Assembly: GCA_963833985.1 (NCBI GenBank)
Contig: CAWIAD010000002.1
Location: 3,424,001 to 3,488,000, forward strand
Reading direction: 5' to 3'
Length of the DNA stretch: 64,000 nucleotides
From: an uncultured Planctomycetaceae bacterium
Lineage (GTDB): Bacteria > Planctomycetota > Planctomycetia > Isosphaerales > Isosphaeraceae
The position numbers and the translations under genes were made by a program. Below the pieces are notes generated by a model. That model was not told the DNA's origin. It did not search any database and was given only the letters and a program-made list of their open reading frames with translations. This document shows positions 14,628 to 29,832 of the stretch, piece by piece (position 1 is the stretch's first letter; each line of letters starts with the position of its first letter).

Positions 14628-15954
14628 TCAGAGCAGTTCGCGGGGTGGCTGGCCGTTATCGACGATGCGGATCGGCCGGCCGTCGGGTGCCTCGAACTTG
14701 CGCTCGGGGTCAATGCCAAGCTTCAGGTAAATCACGGCCGCCAGGTCCGCCGGCGTCACGGGGCGGTCGGCGGGCAGGTCGCCGCGGGCGTCCGTCTTGC
14801 CCAGCACCAGGCCGCCGGGAATGCCCGCACCGGCAAGCAGCACGCTGTTGGCCCGGCCGTGATGGTCGCGGCCGGCATTGGCGTTGATCTTGGGGGTGCG
14901 CCCGAATTCGCCCATCATCACCAGCAGGGTGTCTTGCAGCAGCCTGCGCTCCGAGAGGTCCTCGAGCAGGGCGGAGAGGCCCTGATCGAGGGGCGGCGCC
15001 AGGGTGTTCTTGATTGTCGGGAAGTTCTGCGCGTGCGTATCCCAGCCCAGCGGGCCGGTACCGCGGTCGTTCAGCGTGACGAACGAAACGCCGGCTTCCA
15101 CGAGCCTGCGCCAGCAGGCAAGACTGGCCGAACGTGGTGCGGCCGTATTTCTCGCGGACCGCGGGCGATTCATCGTCGATCCGGAACGCGGCCTGGGTGG
15201 CGCTCGAGGTCATCAGCGAATAGGCCCGTTCGGCGAACTGGTCCCGGCTGGTGGTCAGTGGCGTGGCCGGCACATCGCGGGCAAACTCGTCCAGCGACTT
15301 GACCATGGCCTTGCGCCGCAGCAGCCGCTCGAGGGTCAGCCGGTCGGGCGGAGTGAGGTCGCGCACCCGGAAATTCGCCTGGTTGGGATCTCCGGCAACC
15401 GCAAAGGGGTCGTACGCGGGAGTCAGGTAACCGCTGGAAGAGAAGGCCGGCCCGTCCGGAATGGCCACATACGGGGGCAGCATCCCGTTCCTCGATTGCC
15501 GCAGCTTCGAGACGACGCTGCCGTAGCTGGGATACTCCAGCGCCGGCGAGGGGCGATAGCCGGTCATCAAATGGTGTGAGGCGCGGCCGTGGTCGGCCTC
15601 GGGTGAGGTCATGCTGCGGACCAGCGTCACCCGGTGCATCGATCTGGCAAGCCGGGGGAAGACCTCGCTGACCTGCAAACCCGGAACGCTTGTGGCGATC
15701 GGTTTGAACTCACCGCGGACGTCCGGCGGCGCATCGGGCTTGGGGTCGAAGGTATCCAGATGCGACGGCCCGCCGGCCAGCCAGATCAGGATGCAGTTCC
15801 GCACCGGCGAAGCGCGGCGCGTCACGTCGCCGGCCATGGCGCGAAGCCGGAAGAGATCGTCCAGCCCCAGGCCCAGGAAGCCGAGGACTCCGGCTTTCAG
15901 CACGTCGCGCCGGATCGGACCGGTGCAGGCCACGGACTTGCGCGAGGTCGGCAT
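14628..15954 (-). CDS. DUF1501 domain protein (frameshift near 15115)
   Basis: RRDVLKAG leader, LAGGPSHLDTFDPKP, YGRTTFGQSCL, WDTH, GEFGRTP, GRDHH. Confidence 0.9.
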
Positions 15955-15999
15955 GAGATCAGCTCCTGGATTCGGGCTGGATGAGAGACGAATTCCCGG

Positions 16000-18568
16000 T
16001 CAGTGGTTGAAAGCGAACTCACGTGAATTGAGCAGGGCCCAGAACAGGTCCTCGGCGGCTTCACGCAACGAGGACGCCTGCTTCAGCTCGGCCGACCAGC
16101 GCGACAGCTCCTCGGCGCTGGGCGGTCGGCAGACGGTACGCAGGTAGAGGTTCTCGATCAGTTCTTCAGGCGTCAGCTCGAGTGCCAGAGCGCTGGCGAG
16201 GTATCCGCTGAGGTGAGTCACCTTGGCCTCGATCGTGTCGCCGCCGATCACCAGCAGCGCCTGCTTGAGACTCAAAGGGGGCGTCTGGACCGCGCGCAGG
16301 TCGCCGTGCGCGGGCAACGGCCGAAGGTGTCCAGGATGGTGCTGGCCACACCAGGGTCACTGATGCGGATTGCCAGACGGGTCCCCAGCGGACCGAACGT
16401 GTTGGGCACGTCCGTCGCCTGCGCGAGGGCGTCGGCCATCTGGTGGGCCGTCAAGGGACGCGGGGTCTGGTGCGAGAAGAGCCTTTGATCGTGCTCGTTG
16501 CCGGCGATGGCGGCGCTGGAGGCCCCATACGACTGCGAGATGGCGATCGTGCGGATCAGGTCGCGAAGGTTGTACCTGTGCGCCACGAAGTGGCCGGCGA
16601 GGGCGTCCAGCAGCTCGGGATGAACCGGCGGGTTTGACCGGCTCAGATCGTCGGGCGGGTCCACCAGGCCCTTGCCGAAGAGCTGCGCCCAGACCCAGTT
16701 CACGGCGGCACGGGCAAAGTAGGGATTCTCGGGCGACGTCATCCAGCGCGCCAGCGGCACGCGCGGATCGTCGCTGGCTGCCAGGGTCACCGCGCTGCCG
16801 CCGGGCAGCCGGGGCTGGGCCGGGCGCTTGGTCCGCAGATGCAGCACCTTCCCGTTCGGGTTCACCGACAGCACGGGACGGTTCATCGTCATCCCCGCGC
16901 CGCCCATGCCGCCACGCTGAACCTTGGCAAAGAACGCGGCCAGGCCGAAATAATCGTCCTGCGTCCAGACGTCGAAGGGGTGATCGTGGCACTGGGCGCA
17001 GCGCATCCTCAGGCCCAGGAACCGCTGGGCGGTCTGCTCGGCCGCCACCGTGGCCTCGAGCGTGTCGAAGGCGTAATTCACAGGGCCGCCGGTATCCGGG
17101 TCATTGGGGTCGCCGAGCGCCGTGAGCATCTTTCGGACCATCACGTCCCAGGGCGTGTTCTCGGTCAGGCAGCGGTCGATCCACTCCTGGTAGCGATAGG
17201 CCCCGTTCCCCTGCCGCGCCTGGCTGATCTGGAGCAGGTCGCCCAGCTTGATGCGCCAGAACCAGACGAACTCGGGGCGCGCCAGCAGGCGATCCACCAG
17301 CGCGGCCCGCTTGTCCTGGTCCTTGTCGGCCAGGAACCGCCGAATCTGCTCGGGAGTGGGTTGCTCACCGGTCAGGTCGAGCGTGATGCGCCGCAGGAAG
17401 GTGGCGTCGCCGGCGGGCGGGCTGGGAGGGACCGCGAGCGCTTGTAGACGCTTGTAGAGTTTGTCGTCGATGAGGTTCTTGCGGGGCAACCGGCCGAAAT
17501 CGAATTTCAGATCGGGGTTGATCACGGTCGCCAGGCGGGCCGTCTCGACGTGCGCGCCGTAACGGACGATCACGTCGGCCTCGGCGCGCTTCAGCAACTG
17601 GCTTCGGCCGGCCGGGCTGATCGCCAGCGCGGCGTCATCGTTCACCTTGAAGATGGCCAGCCGGGTGACGTCGCGGTCGTGGCCGTCGGCGTGATGGGCC
17701 ACCACCCGCAACTGCTGGAAGCCCGGCTCAGGCAGGCGGATGCCCGCCGGCTCGACGCGGACCGAGACCACGTCGCCATGCGATTTGCCGCGCTGCCGAG
17801 GAGCCCCGGCACGGACCCAGTCGAGCAGCAGACGGTACTCGGGAGCACTCGCCGCCACCCGTGGTCCGCCGGCGTGCGGCGTGCGGCCGGCAGCCTTGGC
17901 CAGGAACAGGCTCTCCTCAGGAGCGACGAGCGAAACCCTGCGCTGCCCGGCATCTCGCACCAGGCTCTGGTAGTCGCCGTCCGGATCGTAGCCGAAGAGC
18001 GACAGGTGAAAGCCGTTCTGGCCGTCGGCCCGGCCGTGACAGCTACCGGTATTGCATCCCAGTCGGGTGAGAACCGGTACGATATCGTGCGCAACTCCCA
18101 GTCGCGTCGATCACGCGGCTCGACGCGGACCGATGCCGTGACCTCCTGCCCCTCGAACTCGGCCCGGACCGTGGCCTTTCCCCCGGCCCTGGGACGAAGA
18201 TAGCCCCCAGCTTCGACGTCCGCCACGCCGGGCGGCTGCACGCGCCAGCGCGCTCTCCCCGTCAGGTCCCGCACCGTCCCATCGGCCGAATGCTGGAGAA
18301 CGAGCAGTTGCACGCCGGGGTCGTCGGCCGTTATCGTAGCGGACTCGGGTTGGATCGCAAGCACCCGGGACGTTGCCGCGGCTGGAGGAACGGGAGCAGG
18401 CCGCAAACTCGCCACGCCCGGTTTTGGGGGGCCGTCGACCACAGCCGAGATCGCCGAAGCAGGGTGCAAGGCGTTCCCCGGCGCCGGGGTCGATCGCACG
18501 CCGCAGCCTGCAACCACCAGGCAACCCAGCAGCGCGTACGCTTCGCCGATGTACAGACGACGGGGCAT
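16000..18568 (-). CDS. DUF1549/DUF1553 protein with Ig-like domains (frameshifts near 18090 and 16300)
   Basis: FLRRITLDLTG, CAQCHDHPFD, NPYFARAAVNWVW, PELLDALA, EDLFWALLNSREFAFNH; possible lipobox VVAGC near the N-terminus. Confidence 0.88.
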
Positions 18569-18767
18569 CGAGAAGTCTCCTCCCGCCGAGAACCGGTACA
18601 GACGGGGCTCACGACAAACGTCGGATATGGAAGTATCGTAATCGCACGCCACGGGAAACTCAAGGACAATCATCAATCCGGCGCGACGGCCGCGAGAGCC
18701 ATCCTGGGACGGACCACGATGGGACACTTTTCGAGATCGTTGCCCGGCACACAGGAGCGAATGGGAT

Positions 18768-18890
18768 ATGGGCAAGGGTGACAAGCGATCCAAGCGGGGC
18801 AAGCTGTTCAAAGGCACCTTCGGCAAGCGCCGGCTCCGGCCCGAAAAGGCGGCCAAGCATGCGAAGGCCGCGGCCGCAGGCGGTTCGTGA
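18768..18890 (+). CDS. 30S ribosomal protein Thx (bS31/bTHX)
   Basis: Manual translation MGKGDKRSKRGKLFKGTFGKRRLRPEKAAKHAKAAAAGGS, matching the Thx signature MGKGDxxxxRGKxxxGxxGK; AGGAG upstream. Confidence 0.88.
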   Translation: MGKGDKRSKRGKLFKGTFGKRRLRPEKAAKHAKAAAAGGS

Positions 18891-19130: not shown

Positions 19131-19358
19131 ATGGCCAGGCTCCGGCTGCTGAAAACGGGACACGGCGACCTGACGCTCGCCGAGTGGGACAAGGACCATC
19201 CGGAAACCGTCGCCTCCGCGAGCGCGCAGTTCACGGAGCACTTCACCGCTGGCCGGATGGCATTCCGGCTGGACGGTCCGGGGCAGACCCGCCCGATCCG
19301 CCAGTTCGACGCCACGGCCCCGGAAATCCTCATCGTTCCGGCCATCCAGGGCGGTTGA
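19131..19358 (+). CDS. 75-aa protein with C-terminal di-glycine; candidate ubiquitin-like/beta-grasp protein
   Basis: AAGGAG Shine-Dalgarno about 9 nt before the ATG; GC3-rich codons; ends EILIVPAIQGG-stop. Confidence 0.8.
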   Translation: MARLRLLKTGHGDLTLAEWDKDHPETVASASAQFTEHFTAGRMAFRLDGPGQTRPIRQFDATAPEILIVPAIQGG

Positions 19359-19438: not shown

Positions 19439-20299
19439 ATGATCCGCACCGGATACCTGCGCTGGGAGATCGAGGTCGACGACGTGCGCAGCGCCGTGGA
19501 CTTCCAGGCGCGCGAGGTCGTCTTTCTTGCCCGGCCAACGCATCGCCGCGTACGTATCAAGCGCACCGGTCATGTCGATGCGGCAGAGCAGTTCGCCCGT
19601 GGCGACGCAGCTTATGATGCGGTTTTGCGGACCCTCCAGCGCGAGGGCGGCGAGGTCGAGCTGACAATTCCCGACGTCGGTCCGCAGCACTTCCGCTATT
19701 CCGAGGCCGACCGGGCGCGGATGGTTCGCTACTGGATGGAAAAGCTCCAGCGCGAGGCCAGCGGCTTTGCCCACGAAGTGGTGCGCGTGGCCTCCTCATT
19801 CCCGCAGCTCGTGATCACCAGCCCCGCGCTGCGAGCGGGCTATGCCCGCCTGGTGGAGGCCGAGATCTTCCGGGTCATCGAAGGCAAGAGCACGCCTCAA
19901 CCCACGTCGGAGCAGCCATTCACGCTGGACGAGTCGGCCTACCAGCAGGGGGTCCCCGAGCTGGTGGCCGCGGAGCTGGTGCGCAACGTGGTCGAGCCCA
20001 AGGAGTTTCACGAGTTCTGCCAGTTCGACTGCGTGACGGTGAAGAACGGCGGCCACTATTACCGCATCCCGCGCCGGCCGCACAGCCTGATCGAGGTCTG
20101 GGAGGCCGCGACCCGGCGCCCGCACGCCCGGCTCTGCGTGGTCTTCGAGGATGCGGGCATGCCCCCCTCCGACGAGGTGGTCATGAAGTACCTGCTGGCC
20201 AAGCACCAGCCCGAGCTGCTCTGGCAGATCGGCGTGCGCTTCAGCCCCCCCACCGGCAAGTTCGAGGTCACCCCACCGAGGCGCTGGACGGTGGACTGA
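19439..20299 (+). CDS. Hypothetical protein, partner of the GG-ending protein; C-terminal domain with YYRIP...RLC...PPSDE
   Basis: 286 aa from ATG 19439 within ORF 19004..20299; GC3-rich codon usage; same strand, 80 nt downstream of the GG protein. Confidence 0.75.
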   Translation: MIRTGYLRWEIEVDDVRSAVDFQAREVVFLARPTHRRVRIKRTGHVDAAEQFARGDAAYDAVLRTLQREGGEVELTIPDVGPQHFRYSEADRARMVRYWMEKLQREASGFAHEVVRVASSFPQLVITSPALRAGYARLVEAEIFRVIEGKSTPQPTSEQPFTLDESAYQQGVPELVAAELVRNVVEPKEFHEFCQFDCVTVKNGGHYYRIPRRPHSLIEVWEAATRRPHARLCVVFEDAGMPPSDEVVMKYLLAKHQPELLWQIGVRFSPPTGKFEVTPPRRWTVD

Positions 20300-23188: not shown

Positions 23189-24837
23189 TCATTCAGGCCT
23201 TCTGCGCGCTTCGATGAAGCGGACGACGTCGAAGTTGTCGCGCAGGATGTTCTGCCACTCCTCGTCGTACAGGTTCGCGTTCTGATCGTCGGAGGGGAGG
23301 GTGGGAAGCCAGAGTTCCGGCGCGATGGAATCCAGCTGCGCCAGCGCGCTCGCGTAGCGCTCGGGGTCGCCGGGTGCATGCGTCAGGTCATAGATCAGGC
23401 GCTCGCCAACGGGCTGGTTCACCTTCACCGGGATGATCCCGGAGCAGAGCACGCGCTTCCCGGAGAGTTCGAACTGGTAGGCGATCGGGTGGTTTCCCCG
23501 GCCGTCCAGCATGTGGGTCGCCACGACGACCCACCCCTTGGCGGCCAGCAGGTTCGCCGCGATGAACCGGGTCTGGGGCGGACAGGCCTTCGTCAGATCC
23601 GCGATTCCCTCGGCAGGAGCCACCACCTCGACATGATATTTCTCGATCAGCTCGCCCAGGCCGGCCGTCTTCAGAGCATCGCACGAGGTCAGGATCACCG
23701 CGGTCGGCGGCCTTGGCTGTACGCCCAGCGCGGAGCCGCTCGTTCACGAAGTCCACCAGACCCGGTCCGCCGGGCGCGTCGATCAGAAGCAGCCGGGCCG
23801 CGCTCACGAGGCCGTACACCGCCGCCCCGTGAAATGTCCCCAGGTAGTAGAGATCCGGGAGCAGACGCTTGGGGTTCCCGTCCAGGAAGTCCGCACCGTC
23901 GGCCTCGTAGCGGGCCAGCAGGGTTTCCATGTCGTGAATCCCCCGATCCAGCAGGGCCTCCCACCGCGTCTGCGTCAGGCAGGGGCTTTCCGGAGACACG
24001 TCCGCGCGGATGTCCGGGAAGGACAAGGTCGGGAACGGGCATGGACCGGAGCAGCCGGAGCGAGTTCAGGAAGTTGCGGGCATCGCCCCGGTAGCGCGGG
24101 GCCAGGTAGGCCGAATAGGTGCCCAGCGGCTTGCCCAGCTCGTTGCGCGGCTTCGCGTCGCCGCGCAGCATGAGGATGACATCGCCCGCGAAGAGGATGC
24201 GCAGTCCCGCCTGCTCGACCTGGTAGCAGATGCTTCCCGGCGTGTGGCCCGGCGTACCGATGGCGCGCACCACGGTCTTGCCGAACGGAAGCGTCTCTCC
24301 GCCCCGCAGCGCGACGTCCACGGTCGTCGCGTGCAGTTCCTGGTTGGGCATGTGAAACGTGCTGAAGAAAGCCTCGCGCGGTTCGCCCGCGCGGAGCACG
24401 TCGAGGTCGCCCGCTCCGGCGTAGACCTTCGCCCCGGTCTGCTCCCTGAGCGCCTGGGCGCCGCCGGTGTGGTCTCCGTGCGCGTGCGTCAGGAAGATGG
24501 CGACGATTGCCTTCCAGTCAAGCCGGAGGCTGGCCATCTGGGCCTTCAGCGAGGCGGCGTCGGCGTCCAGTCCGGAGTCGAAGAGCACGAGGCCCGCCGA
24601 CGTCTCCACGACGTATGCCGCCGACGGCGAGAGGCCTCCCAGCAGGTACACCCCCGGAACGACGGAGATGGGCCGGTGCACCAGCCGGGGCACGCGGTCC
24701 GGCGCGTAGCGAAACGCCGTCGCCGCGCGGTACTGGCGAATTCCCTCGACCAGGCCGGCTCCCACCAGCAGAAGAACGAGCGCGGCAATGAGTGCGCGTT
24801 TCAACACGGGGCGTTTCATCGTGCCGGGCATGGCCAC
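23189..24837 (-). CDS. Membrane-anchored MBL-fold metallo-hydrolase with a second degenerate MBL domain (frameshifts near 24010 and 23705)
   Basis: LTHAHGDHTGG, TPGHTPGS, FAGD, LPGHP; continuation frames have LLIDAPG and ILTSCD. Confidence 0.75.
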
Positions 24838-28297: not shown

Positions 28298-28661
28298 TTC
28301 CGCCCGGGACGCCGGGGCGTGTGGGACTGCCGCAACGACCTGCGTACGATGGGCTAACGCACGAAGAGAGTTCGGGCTGGCCAGTCGCCGGCCCGTCCCG
28401 GCGAGGCGGTGACAACAGGCGGGCCGAAGCAGGCGCCGTGCATCCGGGCGCCGGGCGGATCATGGCGGCTCCGCACGCTCGCCGAACGCTCGCATGCTCG
28501 CCGATTGCTCTCGAGGCTTGCCCGGGCTCTGCTTGTCGGGTTGTGTCCGAACTTCTTATAGTGCTATGCAGTCGCAGTTCAGCAGTCTGGCCGATCGGAG
28601 CGGCAGTCAGGGGGCGTGCACGCGGGCCAATCCATGCCTGCACTGGGGTCAGAGGACGTTG

Positions 28662-29832
28662 ATGGAGAGCGGCCACTCGCTGACTCGTGTCGTGATACTG
28701 GGCTCGACGGGGTCAATCGGGCGAAACACGCTGAGCGTGATCGAGCATGACGGCGGCCGCCGGCTGCGGTCCTGGGGGCTCGAGCGCCCACTCGAACGGT
28801 TCACTGCTCGCGGATCAGGCCCGGGCGTTCCGGCCCAGGTTCGTCACGGTGACCGATCCCCACCAGTTCCAGGTGGTGCGCCAGATGCTGCACGGCCTGG
28901 ATGTCGAGGTCCTGGAGGGCCGTGCGGGCATCGTGAGGATGGTGCAGGATCCGGCGACGGACCGGGTTCTCAGCGCGATCGTGGGAGCCGCGGGGCTGGA
29001 AGGAACCTGGGCGGCACTCGAGGCGGGCAAGACCGTCGCGCTGGCGAACAAGGAAACGCTGGTGGTGGCCGGCCCGCTGGTGATGGAGCTGGCACGCAGC
29101 CGCCAGGCGAAGGTGTTGCCGGTGGACAGCGAGCACTCGGCCATCTTCCAGGCACTGGAATGCGGCCGGCGCGGCGACGTCCGGCGCGTGATCCTGACCT
29201 CTTCCGGCGGGCCCTTTCGAGCCCGGTCGCACAGGGAACTGGCCGAGGTCACTCCGGAAGAGGCACTGAAACATCCCACCTGGCAGATGGGACCGAAGAT
29301 CACCATCGATTCCGCGACGCTCATGAACAAGGCGCTCGAGATCATCGAGGCACGGTGGCTGTTCGGCCTGGAGCCCGAGCAGATCGACGTGGTCATTCAT
29401 CCGCAGAGCGTGGTGCATTCGATGGTGGAGTTCGTTGACGGCAGCGTGATCGCGCAGCTTTCGCCTCCGGACATGCGTCTGCCCATCCAGTACGCCCTGA
29501 CGCATCCTGAACGCCTGCCGGCGCCTGGGCCCCGGCTCGACCTGAGCACGGCCGTCGCGCTGCATTTCGAACCGCCCGACCGCGAGACGTTTCCCTGCCT
29601 GGAGCTCGGTTACGAGGTGATGCGCCGGGGTGGGACCGCGGGAGCGGCCCTGAACGCCGCCAATGAGGCCGCGGTCTCCCGCTTCCTGGGCGGAGAGATC
29701 GGGTTTCTGGATATCCCGCGCGCCTGCCGGGCCGCCCTCGACAATCATACTTTCGATCCCCATCCGACGCTCGACCAGTTGTGGAAGGTCGATGCGCGGG
29801 CACGCCTGGAGGTGCAATGCTGGCAACGCTGA
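28662..29832 (+). CDS. dxr: 1-deoxy-D-xylulose-5-phosphate reductoisomerase (frameshift near 28775)
   Basis: ILGSTGSIG, LANKETLV, LPVDSEHSAIFQ, HPTWQMGPKITIDSATLMNKALE. Confidence 0.95.

Follow-up and report, generated by a model that had tools for sequence, protein, structure and literature searches.

We identified a pair of adjacent genes, one encoding a small protein that ends in Gly-Gly and the other a larger partner with a conserved cysteine, which are real and together likely make up an apparently undescribed variant of the ubiquitin-like systems. The pair is conserved, Cys233, Pro242, and Asp245 of the partner are invariant, the small protein retains its last Gly, and no E1 gene is linked to the two genes; the folds are predicted. 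Our preferred reading, which we regard as a serious possibility a little short of probable, is that the partner serves as an acyl carrier, a divergent one of the E2/RWD type, and is loaded by an unlinked ThiF-type E1; we infer every chemical step of this reading. The original prediction for this locus, an E2-like Cys domain that accepts the Gly-Gly protein, was partly supported. The window (the whole 64,000-nucleotide stretch of DNA that was analyzed) carries the following features.

18768-18890, forward strand: thx, encoding 30S ribosomal protein Thx, upstream of the pair
19131-19358, forward strand: small protein P0002, 75 aa, with a Gly-Gly C-terminus, 80 bp upstream of the partner
19439-20299, forward strand: partner protein P0001, 286 aa, made up of an ordered N-domain, a conserved connector, and a C-domain bearing the Cys
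19439-19888, forward strand: N-terminal alpha/beta domain of the partner, aa 1-150, confidently modeled and common only to MIRxG-type homologs
19886-19924, forward strand: connector, aa 150-162, conserved and predicted to be ordered
19925-20248, forward strand: C-terminal domain, aa about 163-270, a four-strand meander between helix pairs with a weak RWD/E2-like topology
20081-20083, forward strand: His215, kept in 53/73 C-domains, a possible helper residue that is not essential across the family
20135-20137, forward strand: Cys233 (codon TGC), invariant in 73/73 C-domains and at the end of strand 4 in the model, the proposed nucleophile
20171-20173, forward strand: Asp245, invariant in the alignment and Glu in one phage paralog, a proposed catalytic or helix-capping residue

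The reading frame originally proposed for the partner (19439-20299, forward strand) does encode 286 aa, and the sequence quoted for it matches; Cys233 lies at codon 20135-20137 as described, and the only other cysteines are Cys194 and Cys198. The start codon is backed by an MIRTG sequence in 120/120 close homologs. The partner ORF is a real gene, as judged by its GC3 (0.87), its dN/dS, and the number of its homologs (555 at an E value of ≤0.001 among 2,939 candidates). In comparison with a same-genus ortholog, dN/dS was 0.065/0.618 (∼0.1) for the whole partner gene, 0.078/0.626 for its N-half, 0.045/0.566 for its C-half, and 0.092/0.921 (∼0.1) for the small gene; purifying selection acts on the small gene and on each half of the partner. 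The 10.2-Mb host genome contains one copy of each gene. A sigma-70-type promoter or terminator was searched for at the locus, and none was found.

To describe conservation within the partner, we searched 50%-identity representatives and drew the informative set from the resulting 118 matches. Among these representatives, the C-domain (residues about 170 to 265) matched proteins with unrelated N-termini, which were often Thr-rich; this occurrence, together with the structural model, bears out the predicted two-domain build. Most fragments, N-terminal-only matches, and one 1,383-aa repeat protein were left out of the C-domain alignment (n = 73). Only three columns of this alignment, Cys233, Pro242, and Asp245, were invariant (73/73), and they were also invariant in all 59 rows with less than 45% identity, with the caveat that the C-domain rows were retrieved with the query, which biases the alignment toward shared motifs. 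The expectation that Cys233 would be conserved thus held, in distant rows as well as close ones, and the same is true of the downstream Asp if it is taken as Asp245 but not if it is taken as Asp238 (47/73). In contrast, Cys194 and Cys198 are lineage specific (13/73 each), and we therefore rejected the idea that the cysteines of the FCQFDC motif form a metal site. The constancy of Cys233 in the 59 distant members, set against the poor conservation of the other two cysteines, supports the carrier reading. Many positions were invariant within the 120 close homologs, Cys233 and the PPSDEVVMKY block being among them. The segment KSTPQPTSEQP, which had been described as a low-complexity linker, is instead conserved and was modeled at a pLDDT of 91; Ser151, Pro153, Pro155, and Thr156 of this connector were kept in 52 to 53 of 70 rows, 7 of which have gaps here.

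The C-domain was modeled with a pLDDT of 93 as a meander of four strands, the last of which ends at Cys233, that follows one pair of helices and is joined by a Pro-Pro loop to a second pair (in model numbering, helices 12-23 and 26-35, four strands within 37-72, and helices 82-95 and 97-103). Cys233 sits within a hydrophobic strand, as the last residue of strand 4. A four-strand meander flanked by helices, as this model contains, is also how the E2 fold is described in the accessible text of PMC1779556. In the full-length model (pLDDT, 86; pTM, 0.72), the N-domain is an ordered alpha/beta domain.

Neither the C-domain model nor the full-length model had a match in the PDB by Foldseek at an E value of ≤0.001, and a re-examination of the top Foldseek chains gave a best Z score of 4.3. 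A wider structural search with the C-domain returned 4y1l_C as its best match (Z, 5.1; rmsd, 3.1; 84 residues aligned); the trust level of this search is a Z score of 8, and all C-domain scores (5.1 or less) fall below it. Of the top 13 rows, 7 were titled RWD or E2, and 4 more presumably belong to the RWD/E2 clan. Because the Z scores lie under the trust level, we treat this likeness as a lead that is consistent but does not prove homology. The E2/UBC and RWD structures concerned (4y1l_C, 7e2k, 2daw, 2yz0, and 2h2y) share with the C-domain a helix, a four-strand meander, and further helices, but over only 76 to 91 aligned residues, with an rmsd of 3 to 4.4, Z scores of only 3.5 to 5.1, and an identity of 5 to 13%. 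The 50 matches listed for this search included no chain whose title names a bacterial E2 (BilB, BubB, or Cap2). The proposed resemblance to an E2 active-site region is favored by the place of the RWD/E2 clan at the top of the fold search and weakened by the best Z score of 5.1 and by the position of Cys233 at the end of strand 4.

The N-terminal ∼150 aa had been described as free of recognized motifs, and neither profile searches nor the full-model fold search gave a clear family or fold match for it (best Z, 5.2, to unrelated proteins). Further, searches of Pfam, NCBIfam, PHROGs, and PDB sequences returned nothing credible for the N-domain, the C-domain, or the small protein, and in the ESM Atlas P0001 matched only unnamed viral clusters (0.82 to 0.83). 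A known, unrelated family for the Cys domain, which would have spoken against an E2-like role, was looked for and did not match.

Membership in the E2 family was examined directly. E2 active-site cysteines lie on a flap after the HPN motif. As originally noted, this motif is missing from P0001, where His215, 18 residues upstream of Cys233, is kept in only 53/73 C-domains; the partner has no HPN flap, and its cysteine is found at the end of strand 4. None of the E2 profiles (Pfam UQ_con and prokaryotic E2 models) matched P0001 (0 families), although the same library finds the host's real E2, and a profile search of 47 members of the partner family found no E2 family. Moreover, the partner profile did not match the host's own E2 (probability, 0.6%). 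With neither an HPN motif nor a Pfam match, the partner falls outside the E2 family. It also differs from RWD domains in having an invariant Cys233, and its fold similarity to them is weak.

RWD domains are described in the accessible text of PMC1779556 as E2 folds without catalytic activity, and the best fold matches of the C-domain are RWD domains and not active E2s. The two proteins might accordingly form a noncovalent complex in which the RWD-like domain serves as an adaptor or decoy to which the ubiquitin-like protein binds, with Cys233 being structural or redox active; the location of Cys233 in a hydrophobic strand and the tolerance of tails after Gly-Gly (see below) would fit such a complex. 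We consider it unlikely, however, as a structural Cys is usually exchangeable, whereas Cys233 is constant in 59 distant sequences whose neighboring positions vary, and bacterial and phage small proteins alike retain their last Gly.

Of the best 80 among 100 genome loci, a set that includes some near-duplicates, 75 had the small gene directly upstream of the partner, and 3 of the 5 misses were at contig edges. The pairing was kept in 4/4 phage records, namely, two IMG/VR contigs, Virus Rctr197k (KX853510), and the 595-kb phage LR756511. It was also found in 9 of 12 metagenome loci, 2 of which repeat the IMG/VR contigs; the 3 misses were at contig edges. This persistent pairing in genomes, phages, and metagenomes favors the carrier reading. 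We observed two loci (L068 and L102) with a partner and no detectable small gene despite ample upstream DNA; the small gene may sit elsewhere in these genomes. No general neighbor of the pair emerged, as the two commonest real neighbor clusters each occurred in 29/80 loci. Only 13 of 30 family loci have thx linked to the pair, which hints weakly that the pair may have a role related to translation.

The partner was present in 55 of 60 genomes of the family Isosphaeraceae and in 24 of the 27 high-quality ones (this genome counted). Outside the family, a phylum-wide sample of 400 genomes contained only 2 in which the C-domain profile detected it, and these belong to one other genus. Named close homologs are from Isosphaeraceae, and strains of Singulisphaera, Aquisphaera, Paludisphaera, and Tautonia carry the pair. 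A plasmid match was searched for, and none was found. Since the C-domain tree is based on few columns and is unrooted, we do not claim a direction of transfer between phage and host. Three records titled Bryobacterales or "Candidatus Kuenenia" (L092, L112, and L114) contain copies that group with the Isosphaeraceae type, and these may have been misbinned or mislabeled.

Virus Rctr197k also encodes, near the pair, a more distant C-domain paralog (Rctr197k_110; L040:10255-10992), not among the 73 aligned rows, in which the Cys and Pro-Pro are kept and Asp245 is replaced by Glu; no small gene was seen directly before it, and it was also a BFVD structural match. A second candidate for a distant copy, A0A2L0UZL2 of Agrobacterium phage Atu_ph07, was set aside as unconfirmed, being a BFVD structural match only (E value, 3.3e−3; TMq, 0.65). 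Neither sequence profile found a C-domain copy or a small partner in the genome of this cultured jumbo phage.

P0002 is likely a ubiquitin-like beta-grasp protein. In the ESM Atlas, it matched unnamed viral and bacterial clusters at 0.94 to 0.95; the nearest Pfam-named cluster was the ThiS family, at only 0.75, and all 10 of its best matches that carry a family share one family or clan. Together with the RWD/E2 rows at the top of the fold search for the partner, this ThiS-family cluster supports the carrier reading. At the sequence level, no Pfam ThiS match was found in 26 small-protein members, and there was no PDB sequence match. Compared with the ThiS/MoaD/SAMP-type carriers that work with ThiF/MoeB, P0002 is alike in its small size, its C-terminal Gly, and the Atlas features that point to the clan. 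It differs in that its family lacks a Pfam ThiS match and has a dedicated Cys partner of a different kind and in that the phage copies end in Pro-Gly.

A Gly-Gly motif was present in 74 of 75 bacterial small proteins and was terminal in 58 of these 74; in the remaining 16, it was followed by tails of 2 to 29 aa that are mutually unrelated. When mapped onto a partner tree (71 sequences, after 9 rows were dropped), the tails require 12 changes, at least 3 of them forced by well-supported branches, and have thus been gained repeatedly. Among 11 distinct phage-type small proteins, 10 have a terminal Gly (9 as Pro-Gly and 1 as Gly-Gly), and 1 ends in Pro-Ser. Because the Gly end is found across bacterial and phage copies while the penultimate residue varies, the last Gly is the element that is kept. 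A conserved last Gly is a trait of ubiquitin-like carriers. The phage small proteins (L036:4276-4704, L037:5016-5444, and L040:7821-8249) are about 142 aa long, resemble two tandem units, and end in Pro-Gly or Pro-Ser.

The tails bear on a second alternative, in which the C-domain would be a cysteine peptidase or an ATP-free transpeptidase. Cys233 would then cut after Gly, trimming tails or removing tags, and might religate the product without an E1. In its favor, unrelated tails arose repeatedly after Gly-Gly and are present at 16/74 loci, no E1 or canonical E2 is linked to or codistributed with the pair, and Cys, Asp, and the partly kept His could make a triad. We nevertheless judge this alternative improbable. 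In most copies, there is no obvious bond to cut, since 58/74 stop at the last Gly and the penultimate Gly is Pro in the phage-type copies; this lack of a bond would favor ATP-dependent activation over transpeptidation. In addition, His215 is missing in 20/73 C-domains, and no peptidase fold ranked well in either the C-domain or the full-model structural search. Finally, JAB peptidases are encoded in the host genome, where an ordinary ThiS-family carrier also bears a tail after Gly-Gly.

We then considered where an activating enzyme for the preferred acyl-carrier reading might be encoded. No ThiF gene was found near the pair in the 80 genome loci, the window, or the 4 phage loci (the positive control was found, at an E value of 3e−19), nor in the 12 metagenome loci. 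The host genome has three ThiF-family genes, and ThiF-family enzymes were present in 4/4 other pair-carrying genomes tested; because ThiF is near-universal (12/14 control genomes), its presence in carriers of the pair lends weak support. Two JAB-family genes of the host lie far from the window; for the pair loci themselves, the JAB profile run missed its own positive control.

Rctr197k and LR756511 each carry a ThiF gene at a distance of about 60 kb from the pair, and close to this gene is another that its motif marks as JAB-like; no such ThiF-JAB cluster was seen in the two IMG/VR fragments, which are 38% and 51% complete. These sites are at L133:5757-9429 in KX853510 and L134:5617-11998 in LR756511, and the ThiF gene is short. 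Between the ThiF gene and the JAB-like gene, Rctr197k has a candidate ubiquitin-like gene whose product carries an internal Gly site. In LR756511, a gene that looks TROVE/vWA-like by eye is upstream of the ThiF gene, and no carrier was found beside the latter.

Activation by a ThiF-type enzyme could also serve a sulfur relay, in which MoeB/ThiF would thiocarboxylate the small protein and Cys233 would accept the sulfur as an acyl-disulfide or persulfide that is then used in some modification. In favor of this relay, the ThiS family is the closest named Atlas cluster to the small protein, and MoeB-like enzymes occurred in all pair-carrying genomes tested. Against these points, no sulfur-metabolism gene stood out among the neighbor clusters of the 80 loci (representative sequences, judged by eye), and the phage copies have long, variable N-termini in which no enzyme domain was recognized. 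We view a sulfur relay as very unlikely.

The host genome also encodes a complete, eukaryote-like Ubl-E2-E1-JAB operon (G000:C2:388358-392555; L122:8358-12555, reverse strand), consisting of a carrier ending in Ala-Gly, an E2 (UQ_con, with HPN), an E1 (ThiF), and a JAB, after which come a hydrophobic stretch and what is likely a coiled coil. Like the pair, the E2 of this operon is near-universal in the family (55/60 genomes), which is unusually stable for such an operon. However, the carrier of the operon has no profile match to P0002, the 5 genomes without the operon E2 all have the partner, and the 5 without the partner all have the E2. Further, four pair-carrying genomes have ThiF and no UQ_con match. 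These nonoverlapping absences, together with the four ThiF genomes that lack UQ_con, indicate that the pair is independent of the host E2 operon. We thus rejected the pair as a trans-acting part of this operon, which has its own carrier and a discordant distribution. A link to Pup/UBact was likewise rejected, as the host genome (96% complete) contained no Pup_ligase match. In a proteasome check, its single PF00227 match was a 197-aa frame, a size that we take to be that of HslV.

In the reading that we prefer, the partner and the small protein would make up a ubiquitin-like tagging module of minimal size. Any tail after the last Gly would be trimmed by a host protease, for example a JAB, and an unlinked ThiF/MoeB-type E1 would activate this Gly with ATP. 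The tag would move to Cys233 as a thioester, with Asp245 helping, and then to an amine of the target; the fixed N-domain may act as a built-in target selector instead of an E3. The carrier reading is weakened by the best Z score of 5.1, the lack of HPN, UQ_con, and a linked ThiF, and the location of Cys233 off an E2-type flap. The tails in 16/74 small proteins, the missing Pfam ThiS match of the small protein, the one phage Pro-Ser end, and the variability of His215 also count against it, as does the ThiF cluster of Rctr197k, which has its own candidate small carrier. In Isosphaeraceae, the module would be a vertically kept housekeeping gene pair and not a defense island. Its distribution is unlike the sparse one typical of defense operons (55/60 family genomes, a single copy, and a dN/dS of about 0.1).

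The closest known arrangement is that of the Bil and Bub operons. In the accessible text of PMC11601596 and PMC1779556 (types 6a to 6e in the latter), these place the gene for a small ubiquitin-like protein with a Gly end next to that for an E2-like protein, and they have no E3, the E2 being proposed to choose the target itself. The same texts describe an E1 encoded within the operon, usually with a JAB, and a role in phage defense that was shown or proposed. The pair resembles these operons, as far as those texts describe them, in its Gly-ended small protein next to an E2-like protein and in the lack of an E3. It differs in having no linked E1, no E2 profile match, and a different Cys setting and in being near-universal in one family as well as carried by phages. 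The partner may work like the Bil/Bub E2s, yet by these comparisons it belongs to neither the E2/UBC, the RWD, nor the Bil/Bub group.

No description of this pair was found in the titles and abstract openings listed by open-literature searches or in the accessible text of PMC11601596 and PMC1779556. What is new at this locus is a single-copy core gene that is fixed in a bacterial family with cultured members and has a dedicated, ordered N-domain. The Pro-Gly ends in the phage clade, the repeated gain of tails, and the unlinked ThiF genes in two phages are also new. A broader version of our reading, which we hold to be possible but rather doubtful, is that the pair represents a new conjugation branch: a phage-shared two-gene module that became a core tagger, with an RWD-like domain bearing a non-E2 Cys, a fused N-domain that replaces the E3, and an E1 that is borrowed from sulfur metabolism or not needed.

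As described in the accessible text of the papers cited above, the Bil, Bub, and CBASS operons occur sparsely, act against phages, and encode an E1 of their own, and the pair differs from them. If our reading is true, an E1-less, single-copy module fixed across a family would suggest that bacteria use another type of enzyme to tag proteins as part of housekeeping, and a cysteine that works within an RWD-like fold would inform the question of how E2 and RWD are related. The cultured strains would also offer a testable host for a gene pair that is otherwise mostly found in uncultured phages.

Elsewhere in the window, ordinary-looking genes at 14710-18856 (reverse strand), 23189-24837 (reverse strand), and 28494-29832 (forward strand) appear to be split across frames, perhaps through frameshift errors in the assembly. 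By eye, the split genes are a sulfatase-associated cluster, a metallo-hydrolase-fold gene, and a dxr-like gene.
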